From the NCBI GenBank assembly GCA_965219415.1, contig OZ244742.1, forward strand, positions 1-64,000: a stretch of 64,000 nucleotides of DNA, read 5' to 3'. The translations under genes and the position numbers were made by a program. Shown here piece after piece: positions 892 to 55,294 of this stretch (its first letter is position 1; each line of letters opens with the position of its first letter). Under the pieces are notes generated by a model. That model did not search any database. It was not told where the DNA came from and was given only the letters and a program-made list of their open reading frames with translations. Origin of the DNA: Candidatus Marinacidobacterales bacterium. Lineage in GTDB: Bacteria; Acidobacteriota; Vicinamibacteria; Marinacidobacterales; DATDRI01.

Positions 892-1752
892 TGAAGTCTC
901 GTGGCACGAGTAAGAGTGCCGCCAGCCGTCCACCTCGTGAGCCAGACGACTAAGAAGCTCGAGGAATACCTGTCTCGGCGGCTAGAGGAGTTCGAGCTTG
1001 CGGCACTGATGCTGGATGGCCTTGAGGTGGCCGGACAGACCGTCGTCGTAACTCTAGGTATCACAATAGATGGAACGAAGGTGCCCCTGGGTATATGGCT
1101 GGGCTCGACGGAGAACTCTCGGGTGTGCACCGCGATGTTGCAGGACCTTCTTGAACGGGGCTTGCGCGTCGATGAGTCGATTCTCTGCGTAGTGGACGGA
1201 GGCAAAGGCATCCGCAAGGCACTCGTCGACGTTTTGGGGGACCTCGCGGTCATCCAAAGGTGCCAGATCCATAAACTCCGGAATCTTCGCTCGTACCTTC
1301 CCAAGTCTCGTCACGCCTACGTGCTCCAGACGATGAAGGAAGCCTACAAGTGCAAGAGTGCCGACAAGGCGCGCAAGCGACTTCAGGCATTGGTGTCGTG
1401 GCTCGAGCGAAACGGCTACGACGAAGCTGCCGGAAGCCTTCGTGAAGGGATGGAAGAGACACTCACGGTCGTGAAGCTCGCGCTGCCCGCCTTACTTCGC
1501 CAGTCTCTTGCCACGACGAACGCCATTGAGAATCTCAACGGAACCATTCGCAGAGTATCGAGAAACGTCAAGCGTTGGAAGAGTCCTTCCATGGTTTTTG
1601 TCCACCCGGTCTGGCCCACTTTGATCATTTCATTTGGCCCACCCTAAGTTATTGATTACACACGAAGAGAAGTAATAAGTGCCCCTTTCCTCTGTTGCGG
1701 CCGGAGCTAAGTGAAGGCCGCCTCGAGTGAAACCGGAGCAAAGCGTGTTCTG

Positions 1753-2524
1753 TCATGATGTTGCCGTCTTTTTCCGGGTTTTGAGCGAGCGACGGAAGCG
1801 ATAGGACTCGGTACCGGTTTCGAGGATGTGAGCCTGGTCGGTGAGCCGGTCCAGTAGCGCTTTGCACAGCCGGGCGTTTGTGAACACTTGCGTCCATTCC
1901 GAGAACGGCAAGTTAGTGGTGATGACGGTCGCGGCGCGCTCACATCGTTCGGAGACGACCTGAAACAACAGTTCGGCACCGACCTCGGCGAGCGGTACGT
2001 AGCCGAGTTCGTCGATGCACAGCAGTTCGAAGCGGGCGTGCTTGCGAATAGCCTTAGAAAGCTGGAGCTCCTCCTTGGCCTCGACGAGTTCGTTGACGAG
2101 CCTCGACGCGGTCGTGAACCGCACTCGACGACGCTGCTGGCAGGCCTCTACACACAGCGCGGTGGCGAGATGGGTTTTGCCAGTGCCGGCATCGCCGAGA
2201 AAAATCACCGGCTCTGCCCGCTCGAGGTATCTACCCTCAGTGAGTTGGCGGATTCGCTGAGCGGACAGCTTCGGTGACAGCGAGAAGTCGAACTCGTCGA
2301 GCGTCTTCGCTCTCGGCAGCTGTGCTTCCTTCAGCCGTCTCTGAACCGTTCGGTGTTCTCGCTCTTCGACTTCAGAGCTGAGCAGAACCTCCAGATAACC
2401 CACGTGGGTTTGTTTTTCGCGGCTAGCTTGTTCTTGCGAGCTTGTGGAACTGAGCTGACACCGTTGGCATCCGAAGCGTCTTGCAATGCTGCTGGATCGT
2501 CTGAATCTCGACGGGTTGTCTCAT
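1753..2524 (-). CDS. istB: IS21 helper ATPase IstB (frameshift near 2430)
   Basis: Walker [15 protein letters not shown], and [15 protein letters not shown] motifs. The ATG at 2524 overlaps the istA stop. Confidence 0.88.
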
Positions 2525-46870: not shown

Positions 46871-48912
46871 CTAGTCAGAGGTGGGAGAACTCGGCATGTA
46901 GCTCAGGTCGGCTCGATAAGCCAAGAGCGTGGTCCGATAATCATAGATGGACTCGTTGAGCGTGCGAATGATGGCCCGGCCTCGGTGTTGCCATAGGCTT
47001 TCTTCGAGCATCTTTCGGGAGGGGCGTGCCGCTTGGCGCCATCCCCGCCCAGCCCTTGTTTGGGAGGAAGATGATGAAGGAGGGTTGACTGCCTCCGGTG
47101 ACGGCACGACTGAAATAGTACTTCGTATCCGAGCCGGTTTTCGTGATCGCATCCGAGATCTTGCTCACCGCATTCATGTACGCATCGGCCTTGTCGGGCA
47201 TCGCGCTCACTCGACGACTCCGTTACCCTGTCTCCATCTTCAAATCGAACGCCCAGGTGAACCTCTCGCATCAGCTCCGGTGCGTTGAGCCGGCGAAAAT
47301 TCTTCTCCGCAACCAGAAGCAGTTTGAAGATTGTCGCAGTGGCGGACTCGATTTTCTTGAACCTTTTGGCCGCATCCGTTCTCAATCTCAGTGCAGCGAA
47401 CGGTGATTCCACGACGTTGCTCGTGCGAAGGTGTTGCCAGTGAGGCTTGGGAAAGGAATAGAAGCTGACCATCCGCTCCCAGTCCTCGTCGAGCACGTGC
47501 GCGGCCCCCGGAAGACCCTTGCGCAAGCACCAATCCTGGAACTTGGCCTTCTTCGTCTCGCACTCCTGCAGGCTGGTGGGGTAGGGGATCGCCGTCAACA
47601 GCGGCTTGGCCTGCGCCTGGTCCCTTTTCGGAATCCGGTCCAGTACGTTGAGGATTCGGTGGTTCCAGCACCGCTGCTCCTCAGCTTCTGGAAATACGTT
47701 TCGGGTCGCGGCCCAGATGCCGAGATGACCGTCACCGATCACCAAACGGGGACATCTCAGACCGCGCTTCTTCAGTCTCCGTAGCAGCGACGACCATGAC
47801 GCTTCGGGATTCTCGATGCCCGGCCTCCAGCGTCAGGACGATTTTCGTCCCGTCGGACAGGCCACCAACCGCAACTAGCACCGCCGCCTTGTCCTTCTCA
47901 AGGCCGGCCTTCACGTACACGCCATCTACCCACAGGGACACGAGCTCGAGTTCATCCAGTGGGCGAGCTAGCCACTGCTCGTACTCTCCCTGCCATTTCT
48001 GTTTCAGCCGCGACACCGTGCTGGGAGAAAGTGGAGCGTCCTCCCCTAGAAGCCCGCGGAGCGCCAAATCGAAATCTCCGTGAGCTAGTCCATGCAGGTA
48101 CAGCTCCGGAATCAACTCGCTCACCGTTTCGCTCCGACGCTTGAACAGCGGAAGCACTCGACTTTCGAACCTCTCCTCCACGTCCCGTACTCTCGGCCGG
48201 CGAACCGTCACCGTGCCCACGCTCATCGTCAGCTTCCGAGGCTTACCGTATCCATTTCGATAGCCCGCCGTTGTGTCCACGGGCTTCCGTCTCTCCGATT
48301 TCTCACGCCCGAGAAGCTCCGTGACTTCGGCTACCATCAGCTCCTGCACCCAATCCTGGATCTCGAGCCTCGCCCACTTCTCCAGCGACTCCCAAGCCAC
48401 CCTTGACGAGCTCCGTCGTCTTGTGGTCTTTTCCTTCATGGCGGTGTCTCCTTCCGTTGGCCCCTTCAGGCCGTGTTTCGTGACGCGGAAGGTTATACTT
48501 CGCCTTTACTTTATTTCCACACCTTCTGAGGGTAGCTCCTGGCATGTCCGCGATGTACTTGATATTGGCAGCCTCCGTATAGGGCCCGGAGTTCATCTTT
48601 CGGTTCGCCAAATCCTCGGCACGGTCGATCGGCATGTTGTCGAAATCCGCCCATTTGTGCTCGAAGGTGCCGACCACATAGTCACCCACGTTCTCACCAC
48701 TGACGATTTCCCAGACGAACCATTGCCAGGTGTCGCCTTTCTCGCGGTGGAACGCCATGTGCTTCTTGGTGCCCTCCTCCCATTTGTCCTTCATGCCCGC
48801 CTTGGGCGTCACGTGAATCATCATACCCACCACGTTTTCGTCTTGGGCCGCGGCCGGTAGCGAAAGAGCTACCAGACTGACAACCAATGCAACGAGAACT
48901 AGTTTCTTCATG
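46871..48912 (-). pseudogene. Secreted hypothetical protein split by IS256
   Basis: The N-terminal half MKKLVLVALVVSLVALSLPAAAQ... (48912-48539) and the C-terminal half ...AYRADLSYMP (47210-46871) flank the IS. Confidence 0.6.
47211..48538 (-). mobile_element. IS256 type C, second copy lacking its right IR
   Basis: Near-identical to 13681-15005. Frameshift near 47808. Confidence 0.9.
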
Positions 48913-49300: not shown

Positions 49301-49441
49301 CTACGCGAGACGGAAGACTTTGATGGCGACGGTGCGATCGAGGCGAGTGTCTTTGGCTTTAGACACCTCACCCATGCCACCTGCACCGAGAGGTGCCAGG
49401 ATTTCATAGGGACCCAGCTTGGTGCCGGGAGTTAATGACAT
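49301..49441 (-). pseudogene. Ser/Thr protein kinase N-terminal shard
   Basis: [42 protein letters not shown]. Confidence 0.8.
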
Positions 49442-50538
49442 GGCTAGCCCTTTGATCGTGAAAATAGCCCTGCACAGGCTGAAAAGTCAACGAGTAGACC
49501 GGCCCGCGCTCGCGCGCGAGGCTGCTTGAGCGGCGGTATCGTTGCATCGCCTCTTTCCCGTAGTCGCACTCGGCGAGATACCGGTTGTGCGCGGGACACA
49601 TCATCTGGATATTTTCGGGGCTATGGTCGCCGCCACGAGCAAAGGGATCGTGGTGATGGAATTGGAGTGTCTGCCGCTCGTTGCAGCGTCTACCTCGTGC
49701 GTCCACGAAGGTGCACTGATTTCCGTCACGCTCGGCAACCGCGCGTCTCACGGGGGCCGGGATATAACGTGACGACGGTGACGTATCGGTCTCTTCGACG
49801 CTCTTCCTGGGGGCTTTCGACTTCCCAAAGCGCCGCGACTCCAGTCGTTCGAGCTTTTCGGTCACCGCCTCTTCTATGATCGCCCCCAGGTCGCCGTCGG
49901 GAACCGAGCCTCGCACAAGCCCTCGCAGACGCTCGATCTTGTCTTTCAGCTCCGCGCTGGCCGTGAACTGCACTTTGTAACGGGCGGGGGCGAGAGGCTC
50001 CACGAACGCGGGCTTGGCCTTCGCCGGAGTGGGTAGATCGGTTACTTGGTCCGGACCTAGTTGAGGTGCCGGCGGCCGTTTTGTCTTTGCCCGGTGCACG
50101 GGTAGCTTGCGCATCGTCGTGGGAACATCCGGTTTAGGCGAAAGCTCGGCCACGAGCTCCTCGATTTCCCGCTTCGACTTGTGCACGGCACGGGCCAGCA
50201 AGCTCTCTCGATTGGCCTCCGTGAGCAGCGGCGCGATCTTCGCGATACCGTTCAAGTGAAGGCGCCCGTCCTCCAGCATCACCAGAAGGACGGGATGCGT
50301 TCGCGACGCACGCGCCACCGCAATCCGCAGATAGGCTTCCCACTCTGACAGATGCAGGACCTCCGTACAAGTACGCGAACATCGATGAGCAAGCTTCACG
50401 TGCGTAGAGGCGCCGCTCGTCTACCTCGGCAATGTGTGCGACCAACTCCGACTCGACGCGTCGTGATCGTTGCACCAGCCCCGATAAGCGGTGAAGTAGC
50501 TCATCATCCGAAATTGATTTCAATAACTTCTTAAACAT
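49404..50538 (-). CDS. DUF222-like / HNH endonuclease (one frameshift ~50370)
   Basis: N-terminal SDDELL..L...[19 protein letters not shown]; C-terminal [23 protein letters not shown]. Confidence 0.8.
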
Positions 50539-51698: not shown

Positions 51699-51715
51699 TT
51701 GGCTGGAGCGGGAGG
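51699..51715 (-). repeat. 17-bp duplication of the tRNA-Asn 3' end (att core)
   Basis: TTGGCTGGAGCGGGAGG is identical to 51911-51927. Confidence 0.75.
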
Positions 51716-51911
51716 TTGTTGCTCCCAAAATCGGGATAAGCCTCTCCGGTCAAGGAGTACCGCGGTGGCACTGCCTAGTTCGATTGTTCGGGGCCCTCGT
51801 TTGGCAACTCGGTTGGCACACGCCGCTGTTGCGGAGCACCACTTGATTGCAGACCGGCGCGGATGGTGGCACAACCTCGTCAGTTGGCTTGGCGTTGATG
51901 AGTGGCAAAGT

Positions 51912-51986
51912 TGGCTGGAGCGGGAGGATTCGAACCTCCGGTGGCCTGGTTAACAGCCAGGTGCCTTACCGCTTGGCTACGCTCCA
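51912..51986 (-). tRNA. tRNA-Asn (GTT)
   Basis: TGGAGCG/CGCTCCA acceptor stem, GCC/GGC D stem, CCTGG-CTGTTAA-CCAGG anticodon arm, GGTTCGAATCC T arm and encoded CCA. Confidence 0.92.
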
Positions 51987-52008
51987 ACAGTTGGCGATTG
52001 GAAAAAAT

Positions 52009-52551
52009 TCATTCTTTCGAATCGAAGACAGCCGAATGCTGCTTTTCCACCGCCGCCCCCTTCGCCGCTACCGAAAGCTTCAGCGACAGCGTCTCGTGGG
52101 TCGGCGCGCTGCACGCGACATCCGTGCAAACTTGATAGTTGATTCTAACATCAACCGGAAGCGGGTTGCCCTCGGAGGCCTCGCTTGCTACGGAAATCGG
52201 GATTCGAATGGCAATCTTACCCTCGTACAGATCGTATTTTCCGAGGCCGGATAAGTCACGGGTGACGACCGGAGGGAAAACCGGGTCCCCGGTGGGCTCG
52301 ATCAGCTCTCCGGACACCGCCACCTCCGTCCGGCTCGGCTTCCTCTCTTCGGGACCATATAGATGATAGCCGGGGTCGATCTCAGCAAGGACGGCCACCT
52401 CGAGCTGATCGCCCGGCCGCACTGGGTCTTGCGACGCGACGAGCTCGAAGCGAATCGAGTTCTCCCAGTCGGGAACGTCGAAGTTCTGAGCGAAGACGAG
52501 CGAACCAGCGAACAGCAGCAGAGCGGCTGAGGGCACGCTGTGTTTAATCAT
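52009..52551 (-). CDS. Stand-alone DsbD N-terminal (alpha) domain protein, secreted
   Basis: Signal peptide; IDPGYHLY, YEGK and YQVCTDVACSAP (C-X4-C) motifs. Confidence 0.82.
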   Translation of the reverse strand: MIKHSVPSAALLLFAGSLVFAQNFDVPDWENSIRFELVASQDPVRPGDQLEVAVLAEIDPGYHLYGPEERKPSRTEVAVSGELIEPTGDPVFPPVVTRDLSGLGKYDLYEGKIAIRIPISVASEASEGNPLPVDVRINYQVCTDVACSAPTHETLSLKLSVAAKGAAVEKQHSAVFDSKE

Positions 52552-53086
52552 TGAGTTTGTCCAGTTCCTGTAGGATCGTATCCGGAGACGTGCGCTTCTT
52601 GTAGTCCTCCCAAACGTTCTTCAGCCGGATCAACCCCTCGGCGTCGATGACGAACGTTGCGGGGTGCGGGATCCCGGCCGCCATCGGTTTGCTCAGTGCT
52701 CCCTCGTTCAGGATCCCGTATTCCTCGATCACTCCCCTGCCATCACAAAGGATCGGGAAGGTCCAGTCGTTCGTTTCCAACCAGCTCGCGGTCTCCTCCG
52801 CGTCGTACTTGGAAATCACGAGGAGAACGGCGTTGCGGCTCTCGATTTCCGAGTACGCTTCTTGCAGCTCGCCGAGCTGCGCTTTGCAGAAGGGTCACCA
52901 AGAGCCGCTTCGGATGAACTCCACCACCACGCTCTTGCCCTTGAGATCCGACAGCTTGTAGCTTTGTCCCTTCGAGTCTTTGAGCTCGAAGTCCGGGGCG
53001 CGGTCCCCCACATCAGCCTCCATGGCGGCGAAAACGGGGCCCCCAAGGGCGAGGAAAATCGGGAGAACGAAACTTTTCATTCTCAT
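52544..53086 (-). CDS. AhpC/TSA peroxiredoxin-like selenoprotein (UxxC) with signal peptide
   Basis: ORFs 52895..53086 and 52544..52819 are in one frame, joined by TGA: GDRAPDFEL...FIRSGSW-U-PFC-KAQL...FPILCD...PATFVID. Confidence 0.85.
52858..52894 (-). promoter_or_regulatory. SECIS-like hairpin
   Basis: GCAGCUC-GGC-GAGCUGC apical stem-loop about 21 nt after the UGA, with lower stem CUUCU/AGAAG. Confidence 0.65.
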
Positions 53087-53166
53087 GAACTCACTATAGC
53101 ACGCGGGGCGCGCGCCTCAGCGTGTGTTGCAAGGAGGAAACGACTAGACTTCTGAGATCGGACCCC

Positions 53167-53494
53167 TCACGGGAGGGTGCAACAGTCCAAGGATACTACC
53201 GTCGGAGATCGAAACGTCGCTGGGTGTGGGGCTGGATTGTGCTCTTCTTCCCACGCGTCGTAGGCAGTTTGGAGATCGTGCACGACTTTGGAATCGTCGA
53301 GCCCGAGCTTCCGCGCGTATTGCCTGGCGAAACTCTTGAAGTAGAACTTCCTCGGAAATCTGTCGAAGTTGCTCTTCTTCGATCCCGGCAAGATACCAGG
53401 TCGTGATCCTGGTTTCTTCCGAAATCCGACGAAGCTTGAGGTTTTGGCACTCGCGCACGTCCTTGAGGGACTTGCCTCGGTACCGGTGGGCCAT
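53167..53494 (-). CDS. RodZ-like helix-turn-helix protein (one frameshift)
   Basis: G..LK.VRE...ISEETRI...YL.GIEE.NFD.FP..Y.KSFARQYARKLGLD. Confidence 0.72.
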
Positions 53495-53712
53495 GATTGG
53501 CCTCCCCTCCCCTTCTCCCTCCCAGGTGGGCTAAGGTGGGAGCTTTCGATGAGGTGATTCGGCTATAGGTCGTTTCGGCGCGACGAGCAGGAGCGGGAGT
53601 TTTTTTGGAACGCTACGGTCGCGGTCGGCTCAGCCTGGAGAAGGTAACAAACAGGGTGTCCCCTGTCAAGATGTGAGTGATGAAAAACTGTGGAAATACG
53701 TACTGAAGGATT

Positions 53713-54546
53713 TCAGGAGGTCTCGAGCTCGTTCAGAATCCGTCGCAGCACTCGAATGACCTCGTGCTTCTCCACCCTCGCCTTGCGGAAGGTCAGAGTC
53801 AAGCGGAATGGGCTCCCCTTTGGACCATACTTGAAGACGAAGTTCGTGGGACGGCCACGGGCGGGCGCGCGGGAGACTTTCCTAGCCTGATCGCGACTCA
53901 AACCTTCGCGGGAGACGCGCTCTATCAACTCCATCATTTTCTCTGGGCTGTCTTGCCTAACTATCTGCAATAACAATGACTTAGAGCTGATGTCGGCGAG
54001 CCGACATCGATTCTTTATCTCGTCGGGCATGGTGTTGAGGCTCAACATCTCGGTAACGCTAGTCCTCGATTTTCCCAGCCGGCTGGCGAGTGCCTCGTGG
54101 GTGTACTCGTAGTTGGAGACCAGGTGCCCGATCGCCTCGGCTTCTTCGAAGGGGGTTAGGTCCTTGCGTTGAAGGTTCTCGACCAATGCCACCTCGACCG
54201 TTTCTCGATCGTCGATGTCCCTTTCCACGCACGGAAGCTCGGTAAGTCCAGCTTGGAGGGCAGCCTGGTATCGCCTCTCCCCGGAAATGATTTGAAACTG
54301 CTCCCCTAGCCTTCGCACGATCAGTGGTTGCAAGACGCCCTTCTCGCGGATCGAGGCCGTGAGCTCGCTGAGGTCACCCATCTGCTGACGAGGCTGATGC
54401 GGGTTGGGCTCGATGTAGTCGATCGACACCATGCGGCCAATGGGTATGCCCTGACGATTGCTTAGTTCCTCCACGAAGTGCAGGTTGCGATCGAAGTGGC
54501 GGAGTCGGACGGAACTGGGTAAGCCGGCTTTCCTAGACACGGGCAA
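53713..54546 (-). CDS. parB: ParB/Spo0J family partition protein
   Basis: PNPHQPR, GVLQPLIVR, ISGERRYQA, ALVENLQRKDL motifs and an HTH. Confidence 0.9.
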   Translation of the reverse strand: MPVSRKAGLPSSVRLRHFDRNLHFVEELSNRQGIPIGRMVSIDYIEPNPHQPRQQMGDLSELTASIREKGVLQPLIVRRLGEQFQIISGERRYQAALQAGLTELPCVERDIDDRETVEVALVENLQRKDLTPFEEAEAIGHLVSNYEYTHEALASRLGKSRTSVTEMLSLNTMPDEIKNRCRLADISSKSLLLQIVRQDSPEKMMELIERVSREGLSRDQARKVSRAPARGRPTNFVFKYGPKGSPFRLTLTFRKARVEKHEVIRVLRRILNELETS

Positions 54547-55294
54547 TCACCTCTTCCGAAAGGCTGTAGTATTCGAAGGCTCCGCGGGAGCGTGGCGCGA
54601 AACTGAAGATCGCTTCCTTGTGGGCCGGGCTCTCTTCCAGCCGGACGTTCTTGTTGATGACGGTCTTGAATACCTTCTCGCCAAAACTCTCCTTGATCTT
54701 CTTGCGCACATCACGCGACAGCGTCGTACGGCGGTCATGGAGGGTGATGAGGATACCGAGAAGGCGAAGGTCCGGGTTTGGCCGTGCCTTCACCTTATCC
54801 ATCGTCTCCAGCAGATCTCCCGTTCCTTCGAGAGCATAGTAGGAAGACTGGATCGGGATGAGCAGGTGCGTCGCGGCGACCAACGCGTTGACGGTGATCA
54901 GCCCCAAGGTTGGAGGGGTGTCGATGATGATGTACTTGTACCGCGCCCGGAGCATCGAGAGCCTATCCCGCAGGCGAAAGTGCCCATCCATCTCGCCGAG
55001 CAGCTTGCTCTCGAGCTTCGCCATGGAAATCTTGGCGGGGATGAGATCCAGGTTCTCAACCGGAGTTTCGTAGATGGCGTCCTTCAACTCCACCGATGCC
55101 TCCACCAACGCGTCATAGACGGAGTTCTCGGTCGCTTCCAGATCCAGCAGGGAAATGGAGGTATTGGACTGAGGGTCCATGTCGATGATGAGGGTAGGCT
55201 CCTTCTTCATGGCGAGAGCCGCAGCCAAATTGACCGCAGTCGTCGTCTTCCCTACCCCACCTTTTTGGTTTGCGATAGTTATGACGGTAGCCAA
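54533..55294 (-). CDS. parA: ParA/Soj family ATPase
   Basis: NQKGGVGKTT, DMDPQ and IIDTPP.LG motifs. Confidence 0.92.
   Translation of the reverse strand: MATVITIANQKGGVGKTTTAVNLAAALAMKKEPTLIIDMDPQSNTSISLLDLEATENSVYDALVEASVELKDAIYETPVENLDLIPAKISMAKLESKLLGEMDGHFRLRDRLSMLRARYKYIIIDTPPTLGLITVNALVAATHLLIPIQSSYYALEGTGDLLETMDKVKARPNPDLRLLGILITLHDRRTTLSRDVRKKIKESFGEKVFKTVINKNVRLEESPAHKEAIFSFAPRSRGAFEYYSLSEEVIARV

Follow-up and report, generated by a model that had tools for sequence, protein, structure and literature searches.

In DsbD, electrons pass from the β domain to the thioredoxin-fold γ domain, then to the α domain and finally to client proteins. The parts of a preprint that deal with such transfers (bioRxiv 10.1101/2021.03.16.435614) report that in the nDsbD–cDsbD complex (1VRS) a mixed disulfide joins an α cysteine to the first cysteine of the partner's CxxC motif, and give the published model of SOQ1 as running in the order CCDA, thioredoxin (Trx)-like domain, nDsbD-like domain, substrate. 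On the side of selenium, review sections (PMC13188914, PMC9312934) list a peroxiredoxin (Prx)-like thiol:disulfide oxidoreductase with PF00578 and a UxxC or UxxU motif (U, selenocysteine) as a selenoprotein 'predicted with high confidence'; they describe the function of its UxxC members as unknown, and their account of the class mentions no DsbD_N partner. Here we report a locus in which a UxxC gene of this kind, almost certainly encoding a selenoprotein, overlaps the gene for a stand-alone DsbD α-type domain. It lies within positions 1 to 64,000 of contig OZ244742.1 (assembly GCA_965219415.1, a 'Candidatus Marinacidobacterales' bacterium of the class Vicinamibacteria), and this whole stretch of 64,000 nucleotides (nt) is called the window below.

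An in-frame TGA at the head of a UxxC motif

On the reverse strand, positions 52544–53086 form one frame of 180 codons when the in-frame TGA at 52895–52897 is read as U (U64, in W-U-P-F-C). Translation with genetic code table 11 splits this frame into two open reading frames (ORFs), 52895–53086 (63 amino acids (aa), ending ...FIRSGSW) and 52544–52819. The original prediction had joined the two short ORFs through the TGA, and both the read-through translation and a Pfam match spanning the TGA confirm this. The features of the locus are as follows.

52544..53086, reverse strand: gene for a predicted exported UxxC selenoprotein, 180 codons including selenocysteine 64; AhpC/TSA–Redoxin fold, Prx-like2/TlpA-like (Pfam match across the TGA and orthologue alignment)
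52895..52897, reverse strand: predicted selenocysteine codon TGA (U64), first position of UxxC (conserved column, cysteine in distant homologues)
53027..53086, reverse strand: signal-peptide-like N-terminus of the selenoprotein, residues 1–20, MRMKSFVLPIFLALGGPVFA, with A after the putative cleavage site (heuristic; orthologue N-termini likewise hydrophobic)
52864..52880, reverse strand: hairpin resembling a selenocysteine insertion sequence (SECIS), 7-bp stem, loop GGC (pairing and covariation)
52544..52551, reverse strand: 8-nt overlap of the selenoprotein stop TAA (52544–52546) with the DsbD_N start ATG (52551), ...CAATGATTAAACAC... (sequence)
52009..52551, reverse strand: gene for a stand-alone DsbD α-type domain, 180 aa (Pfam DsbD_N and fold match)
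52489..52551, reverse strand: signal-peptide-like N-terminus of the DsbD_N protein, residues 1–21, ...SLVFA/QN (heuristic; confidence of the structural model)
52111..52128, reverse strand: redox cysteine pair of the α domain, C142-T-D-V-A-C147, motif YQVCTDVACSAP (invariant in alignments)

The TGA occupies the same alignment column in all 20 orthologue loci of related genomes, and again in all 49 orthologue or homologue loci found in contigs, counting one genome per species. As the records are labelled, these 49 comprise 41 loci from Vicinamibacteria/'Ca. Marinacidobacterales' and eight distant ones (Dehalococcoidia, Poribacteria and delta-type proteobacteria). The search pattern behind most of them omitted the selenocysteine column, so their recovery was not biased towards TGA. 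Across both sets, protein identity amounts to 45–83% on both sides of the TGA. Within the order, 46 of 55 genomes, including that of the window, have an orthologue match (E ≤ 2.8e-44) with one TGA each; the orthologue is broken or partial in three (G012, G014, G024), and six have paralogues only or nothing (G004, G028, G032, G036, G040, G044). Six genomes representing other orders of Vicinamibacteria yielded no orthologue. One unpublished genome (G007) is a single row among many in several of these counts, and no claim depends on it. Distant homologues align WCPFC or WCPYC to the UxxC site. The comparison of this column among homologues, put forward in the original prediction, accordingly returned TGA at every locus of the two aligned sets, cysteine further afield and serine once (P0002, discussed below).

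Misreading of a TGC or TGT codon was addressed with contigs from four runs of four separate studies, all of which keep TGA at 52895–52897. Two runs (X1, X2) are near-identical to the window and may be its source; X7 and X10 represent strain variants, which carry 11 and 23 differences outside the codon. Because the codon is unchanged in all four, two of them strain-variant, sequencing error at the TGA is excluded in practice. The expectation that gene callers would break the gene into fragments also held: close homologues in the protein collection number three entries, of which two are C-terminal fragments (P0003, 105 aa; P0004, 101 aa), and mis-calling at the TGA would account both for such fragments and for the scarcity of selenoprotein entries. 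On this comparative evidence, we regard it as almost certain that the U64 frame encodes a true selenoprotein.

The genome carries the machinery for selenocysteine that the original prediction called for, with selA (569.7 bits), selB (375.8), selD (328.3) and tRNA-Sec (69.7) all present and scoring over their profile cut-offs. The selD gene (G000:C3:3889655-3890587, L011) contains a TGA in frame close to the N-terminus (...CAGUASK...), so that the selenophosphate synthetase is predicted to be a selenoprotein as well. Two AhpC/TSA genes (G000:C3:3431179-3431577, L044; G000:C3:377989-378420, L046) have one in-frame TGA each, in FTGGU and DTPGU, respectively. In these motifs, those of true peroxiredoxins, U takes the peroxidatic position, an arrangement already known as the TxxU type of peroxiredoxin selenoprotein.

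A SECIS-like hairpin downstream of the UGA

Bacterial SECIS (bSECIS) elements are stem-loops shortly downstream of the UGA with a G in the apical loop. The hairpin at 52864–52880 (GCAGCUC-GGC-GAGCUGC) has this form. Its 7-bp stem begins 14 nt past the UGA, its loop reads GGY across the family, and the whole falls within the Q-L-G-E-L codons. The loop begins 21 nt after the UGA, which confirms the G-loop hairpin that the original prediction noted at about that distance. In an alignment of 50 sequences, 41 of them distinct, the hairpin cells are paired in 99.7% of cases and two of the seven pairs show changes on both sides. In 14 rows one pair switches from G-C to A-U, both codon changes being synonymous, and at the base of the stem the pair is G-C, C-G or A-U; the covariation score of the hairpin was reached by none of 500 shuffles. 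An Rfam scan of 51800–53200 gave no SECIS-type match, returning only a tRNA and two weak chance matches.

Positions 52859–52901, which cover the UGA and the hairpin, also attracted many other contigs from four metagenome runs that match only this 40-base stretch, at ≥90% identity. The summed depth there reaches 449, compared with 4–8 elsewhere on the stretch. The nucleotide element formed by the UGA and hairpin is evidently common to many other genes or organisms in those four samples.

A UxxC oxidoreductase rather than a peroxiredoxin

The Pfam AhpC-TSA family matches residues 26–154 of the read-through protein across the TGA (E 5.9e-33; 113.9 bits against a cut-off of 26), a match not explained by chance at this E-value, and the Redoxin family matches it with E 1.7e-19. 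With PF00578 and UxxC in one protein, it falls within the definition of the Prx-like thiol:disulfide oxidoreductase class. In the alignment columns, U64 stands where PxxxTxxC has its Thr (as in the BCP-type 'DTPGC' of P0009), C67 corresponds to the peroxidatic Cys, and P142 to the catalytic Arg. The peroxiredoxin signature of a Thr three residues before the peroxidatic Cys plus the Arg is therefore absent, and no NCBIfam model reaches its cut-off (the best are BCP, 58.1 of 140 bits; ResA, 58.0 of 170; SelL-related NF040769, 50.4 of 120). By these scores the redoxin resembles ResA as closely as BCP. Because U64 and P142 replace the Thr and Arg, and with the peroxiredoxin models below cut-off, we rejected a true peroxiredoxin identity; as judged from its residues, the selenoprotein is a UxxC thiol-disulfide oxidoreductase of the Prx-like2/TlpA/ResA kind with a cis-Pro-type loop at P142. 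Its original description as 'AhpC/Prx-like' is right at the level of the Pfam family and does not extend to peroxiredoxin identity.

Two further kinds of UxxC protein came to light beside this one. Relatives have frames of ~620–750 aa with one TGA and 24–29% identity to the redoxin (for example G001:C1:3548937-3549398 and G036:C56:39324-39836), which may be larger multi-domain UxxC selenoproteins. A distant homologue in a Poribacteria record (L102, 4001–4651) seems to have tandem UxxC redoxin domains, with the second ('...FYRGQWU') directly after the first.

A stand-alone DsbD α-type protein

The product of 52009–52551 matches DsbD_N (PF11412) with E 9e-11 and 42.3 bits against a cut-off of 25. 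It is a single-domain protein of 180 aa whose sole cysteines are C142 and C147 (C-x4-C, 'CTDVAC'), both invariant in 10 of 10 and in 26 of 26 aligned sequences; the DsbD-N neighbour with a C-X4-C pair that had been predicted is confirmed by the Pfam match and by these two residues. An AlphaFold model built on an alignment of 26 homologues has a predicted local distance difference test (pLDDT) score of 90.1 and a predicted template modelling (pTM) score of 0.81, with residues 1–20 at a mean pLDDT of 49–57. Its best fold matches in the PDB are nDsbD of E. coli (1l6p, 3pfu, 1jpe) and N. meningitidis (6dps, 6dnv), nDsbD in complex with CcmG, DsbC and cDsbD (1z5y, 1jzd, 1vrs) and the N-terminal domain of ScsB (6c29; E 7.7e-5, TM 0.39). 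The nDsbD entries have E about 1e-6 and template modelling (TM) scores on the target of 0.59–0.72 (0.69–0.72 for the three best, 1l6p, 3pfu and 1jpe). Searching the PDB by sequence alone gave no match for the α protein, and the likeness to nDsbD comes from the fold search. By its model, the protein is a DsbD α-type, immunoglobulin-like domain. It is not a full-length DsbD, since α, β (DsbD_TM) and γ are not in one polypeptide. The protein collection holds 166 close homologues, and the best 120 of these are 164–212 aa long, share ≥47% identity and carry the name 'DsbD N-terminal domain-containing protein' or 'hypothetical'.

The genome has a second DsbD_N domain (YQACDDTRCLAP; G000:C3:1812652-1812942, L057, ORF 31–1806 with an open 5' end). 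It is the C-terminal domain of a protein of at least 591 aa (open frame 949 aa), which otherwise shows a faint Glyco_hydro_88 match.

Conserved pairing of the two genes

The stop codon of the selenoprotein gene and the start codon of the DsbD_N gene overlap within 8 nt, confirming the predicted stop/start overlap and suggesting translational coupling of the two genes, which probably form one operon. A scan of 51700–53600 found 0 promoter-like and 0 terminator-like sites. Both N-termini have K/R near the start and no acidic residue among the first 20, and on the same heuristic reading each contains a hydrophobic 12-mer (Kyte–Doolittle mean 2.07 in the selenoprotein and 2.43 in the DsbD_N protein) and a likely cleavage site (VFA/A and VFA/Q, respectively). 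This composition, together with the VFA/x sites, supports the signal-peptide-like nature proposed for both proteins, and its signal-peptide-like N-terminus makes export of the selenoprotein very probable.

In 18 of 20 orthologue loci, the next gene downstream on that strand encodes DsbD_N; one exception is cut short by a contig end, and in the other, genome G005, a flavin-reductase-like ORF is found instead. Among the 41 Vicinamibacteria loci it follows directly in 39, and in the remaining two the contig breaks off. Between the aligned parts, the spacing ranges from −5 to about +325 nt across relatives. Conservation of the gene pair, named in the original prediction as something to check, is borne out by both counts, and conserved adjacency together with the fused paralogues described below supports its functional tie between the selenoprotein and the DsbD_N protein. 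We consider it likely, on these genomic associations, that redoxin and α are direct redox partners.

Distant UxxC homologues present a different arrangement, in which BLASTP with the DsbD_N protein of the window detected no α within 4 kb. This suggests that the redoxin can get electrons without α, and α would seem to have been added downstream of the redoxin. Two of these homologues are lipoprotein-like and sit on long linkers. A fusion of UxxC domain and CcdA in distant homologues was considered and rejected, the long upstream frames being low-complexity Pro/Thr-rich linkers behind lipoprotein-like signals.

In G005, a DsbD_N match at C22:491024 was rejected as the missing partner, as it belongs to an α protein of a different type. 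The surrounding region (L113, G005:C22:489500-493000) encodes an exported DsbD_N protein of 285 aa with a C-x3-C motif ('CKDVC'; ORF 1123–1980, reverse strand) and, in the next ORF of the same strand (474–1079), an exported thioredoxin-like protein of 201 aa with a single-Cys 'DCPFV'. This constitutes a further pair of α and Trx-fold genes, from a different family.

Redoxin and DsbD_N domains fused in paralogues

In relatives, a second UxxC AhpC/TSA match lies immediately 5' of, and in frame with, a second DsbD_N match. All six fetched loci of this kind encode an exported fusion of ~345–360 aa, consisting of a signal peptide, a redoxin with RSADW-U-P-Y-C and a DsbD_N domain ending in YQACDDxxCY; Pfam found both domains in all three fusions tested, and one fusion (G060) comes from another order. 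The genome of the window itself seems to lack the fused form. Fusion of redoxin and DsbD_N in paralogues is classic evidence that the two domains act on each other, and by domain content the window operon encodes, in two genes, a two-domain module that is widespread.

With one fused protein as query, a database search brought up 1021 proteins (E ≤ 1e-5). The best 120 of these comprise 73 of 308–389 aa, 46 of 255–294 aa and one of 610 aa. The shorter group has the length expected of gene calls that start just after the TGA, as was the case in both entries checked, so that among the best 120 of 1021 homologues 46 are of post-TGA length and the selenocysteine forms stand truncated in public protein sets. 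Nine of nine aligned full-length homologues have RSADWCP[YF]C and the α cysteine pair (YQAC..xC), and fused homologues are annotated as 'peroxiredoxin', 'redoxin domain-containing protein' or 'hypothetical'.

The hairpin recurs in the same register in all six selenocysteine-type fusions, with C-G instead of G-C at the base of the stem and GUG as its loop. The Q-L-V-E-L stretch that encodes it is invariant in these six and differs in six of the nine cysteine-type fusions; being fixed in the former and relaxed in the latter, it fits a constraint at the RNA level.

A proposed route of electrons

The genome, which is 96% complete, has one DsbD_TM protein, a 245-aa CcdA without α or γ encoded beside a cytochrome c gene, and no DsbD_2 match. 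The DsbD_TM frame is similarly short (245–414 aa) in 26 of 31 related genomes. For export, the role of CcdA, the direction of flow, the Se–S intermediate and the clients, we infer the following scheme. The product of the first gene would be a thioredoxin-fold oxidoreductase exported through the Sec translocon, with the active site U64-P-F-C67, and the hairpin 14 nt downstream of UGA64 would help this codon to be read as selenocysteine. Reducing power would enter through the only DsbD-type membrane protein of the genome, the bare CcdA, which would reduce the selenocysteine-containing redoxin acting in place of the DsbD γ domain. The resulting selenolate/thiol pair would reduce α through a mixed Se–S intermediate between U64 and an α cysteine; U64 occupies the first position of the CxxC motif, where the mixed disulfide with the partner forms in 1VRS. 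The α protein would then pass electrons to other periplasmic thioredoxin-fold clients.

An order from CcdA to redoxin to α is favoured because the sole DsbD_TM protein is a bare CcdA and because DsbD and SOQ1 run in that order. Our best explanation of the locus, an extracytoplasmic, selenium-dependent thiol-disulfide relay encoded by a single operon and working by these four steps, is held tentatively, at a little under an even chance. The direction from CcdA through the redoxin and α to clients by way of a Se–S intermediate is likewise a possibility that we place just short of evens. Still more tentative is the wider idea that the module of redoxin and α is a soluble stand-in for the periplasmic domains of DsbD, which together with the bare CcdA would make a three-piece DsbD whose γ-like position was converted to selenocysteine in marine Vicinamibacteria. 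If true, this would place a selenium-containing step, a selenenylsulfide to α, inside an envelope electron cascade and not in a terminal enzyme.

The original prediction of a hidden exported UxxC selenoprotein tied to a DsbD_N protein stands in its overall outline. For its assignment of α as donor and the selenoprotein as acceptor, the opposite, SOQ1-like order is at least as likely, and its split DsbD is at most consistent with a single DsbD_TM protein in the form of a bare 245-aa CcdA without α or γ.

Alternative explanations

Several observations weigh against the reading preferred here, and they lend themselves to three other explanations. Were the TGA a genuine stop codon, the mark of a pseudogene or an error of sequencing, there would be no selenoprotein at all; table 11 does give two separate ORFs, and the folding energy of the hairpin is unremarkable, with a stability ordinary for G+C-rich sequence (z = 0.42; 130 of 200 shuffles fold equally well or better). 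In addition, five of its seven pairs never vary and sit in conserved codons, and P0002, a 183-aa metagenomic homologue (56% identity in the local match, 58% in the alignment), has W-S-S-Q-C at the site, which may reflect natural variation to Ser or an artefact of assembly or gene calling. This explanation is nevertheless very improbable, given a TGA column conserved throughout both sets of independent assemblies (49 of 49; 20 of 20) and flanked by 45–83% identity on either side, strain-variant contigs from other studies without a variant at the TGA, the full selenocysteine machinery alongside three other TGA-containing selenoprotein genes, and Cys at the U64 column of distant homologues. A milder alternative accepts both genes as real and takes them for neighbours by inherited synteny, acting in separate pathways. 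Throughout the order, the region keeps the same arrangement of genes (MiaB-like, BFN nuclease, ParA, ParB, sometimes HTH_25, then the pair), which makes adjacency alone weak evidence of coupling, and G005 keeps the selenoprotein without a DsbD_N neighbour. We find this improbable too, as the genes overlap or sit close, the same domains are fused at another locus in all six relatives fetched and in more than 1000 proteins of the database, and the known α-domain partners, by their PDB titles, are all thioredoxin-fold proteins.

A more serious contender reverses the order of transfer, so that another thioredoxin-fold donor would reduce α, and α the selenocysteine-containing redoxin, which would serve as a terminal disulfide, sulfenic-acid or peroxide reductase. 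Selenocysteine is commoner in terminal catalysts than in relays, and that of thioredoxin-fold glutathione peroxidase likewise takes the first position of UxxC. The genome already uses selenocysteine in two true Prx-type TxxU enzymes, the selenoprotein matches AhpC-TSA, and the α model matches nDsbD in complexes in which it donates to CcmG and DsbC (1z5y, 1jzd); known α clients all being thioredoxin-fold proteins, the reverse direction fits them equally well. According to the relevant part of Cho et al. 2012 (PMC3322552), the DsbD-like ScsB counts a cell-envelope peroxiredoxin among its substrates. The part given to CcdA in our scheme is also open to challenge: its gene is about 850 kb from the selenoprotein pair and stands beside a cytochrome c gene, so that it may serve cytochrome maturation only, and in five relatives of one genus the DsbD_TM frame is 577–583 aa and not a short CcdA. 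Set against the reverse order are the lack of an evident γ-like donor, the only DsbD_TM protein being a bare CcdA, the missing peroxiredoxin Thr and Arg with all NCBIfam peroxiredoxin models far below cut-off, and the distant UxxC homologues without α nearby. On balance we think the reverse order somewhat less likely, and prefer a relay from CcdA through the redoxin to α.

Neighbouring genes

The surroundings of the pair include two further features.

53144..53494, reverse strand: gene for an HTH_25 protein of 116 aa, an upstream neighbour within the conserved synteny, for which operon membership is not claimed
51912..51986, reverse strand: tRNA-Asn(GTT), 22 nt 3' of the DsbD_N stop, a neighbour kept only among the closest relatives

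Upstream, parB and parA (53713–55294) place the pair within a conserved ParAB neighbourhood. Beyond the tRNA-Asn lie mobile-element genes, namely a Mutator-family transposase ORF (47732–48439) and an HNH-domain ORF (49404–50399).

Comparison with known systems

The selenoprotein class itself is already known, its UxxC Prx-like members having appeared in lists from the first bacterial selenoproteome scans onwards. What appears new, among the literature found, is the dedicated partnership of a UxxC redoxin with DsbD_N, as a predicted operon here and as a fusion elsewhere. No published pair or fusion of a selenocysteine-containing redoxin with DsbD_N was found, although selenoproteome supplementary tables might list one. 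One subfamily of the class now has a partner of known biochemical type, which turns 'function unknown' into the specific hypothesis of thiol/selenol-disulfide exchange between two small soluble proteins. The large, unnamed family of exported Redoxin-DsbD_N proteins may likewise show how bacteria with CcdA only distribute reducing power in the envelope.

Compared with the Prx-like UxxC class as the review sections describe it, the window subfamily shares PF00578, selenocysteine first in UxxC, Cys homologues and discovery by bioinformatics. On this comparison by description, it differs in being confined, as the records are labelled, to marine Vicinamibacteria ('Ca. Marinacidobacterales'), in its signal peptide and in its dedicated DsbD_N partner.

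With E. coli DsbD the window pair shares an immunoglobulin-like α domain with a Cys pair in a YQxC...C loop, a thioredoxin-fold partner of the dithiol type and a DsbD_TM component in the genome. Unlike in DsbD, each of the three parts has a gene of its own, two loci being involved, and the thioredoxin-fold part is an AhpC-TSA/Redoxin domain with selenocysteine and not a γ domain. The α cysteines are spaced C-x4-C, compared with C103 and C109 of E. coli in the numbering used in the nDsbD passages of bioRxiv 10.1101/2021.03.16.435614. As described in the same preprint's sections on it, SOQ1 of Arabidopsis resembles the window pair in having a thioredoxin-fold and, at its C terminus, an nDsbD-like domain outside the DsbD polypeptide, with the β part separately encoded; the likeness is one of architecture only, as SOQ1 is eukaryotic, with a lumenal Trx-like domain, a membrane anchor, an NHL spacer and Cys in place of selenocysteine. 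The ScsB–TlpA–PprX peroxide-reduction pathway, as far as the relevant part of PMC3322552 sets it out, similarly links a DsbD-family α domain to periplasmic AhpC/TSA-type proteins, but it does so with α inside a membrane protein, with a true peroxiredoxin in PprX and without selenium.

The fused Redoxin-DsbD_N proteins resemble the window pair in domain order, in the W-C/U-P-[YF]-C and YQxC-x4-C motifs and in the signal peptide. They differ from it in being one polypeptide, with ~30–36% identity to the window redoxin and 26% to the window α. Those fusions that carry selenocysteine share with the window pair the same order of bacteria and the same SECIS register.

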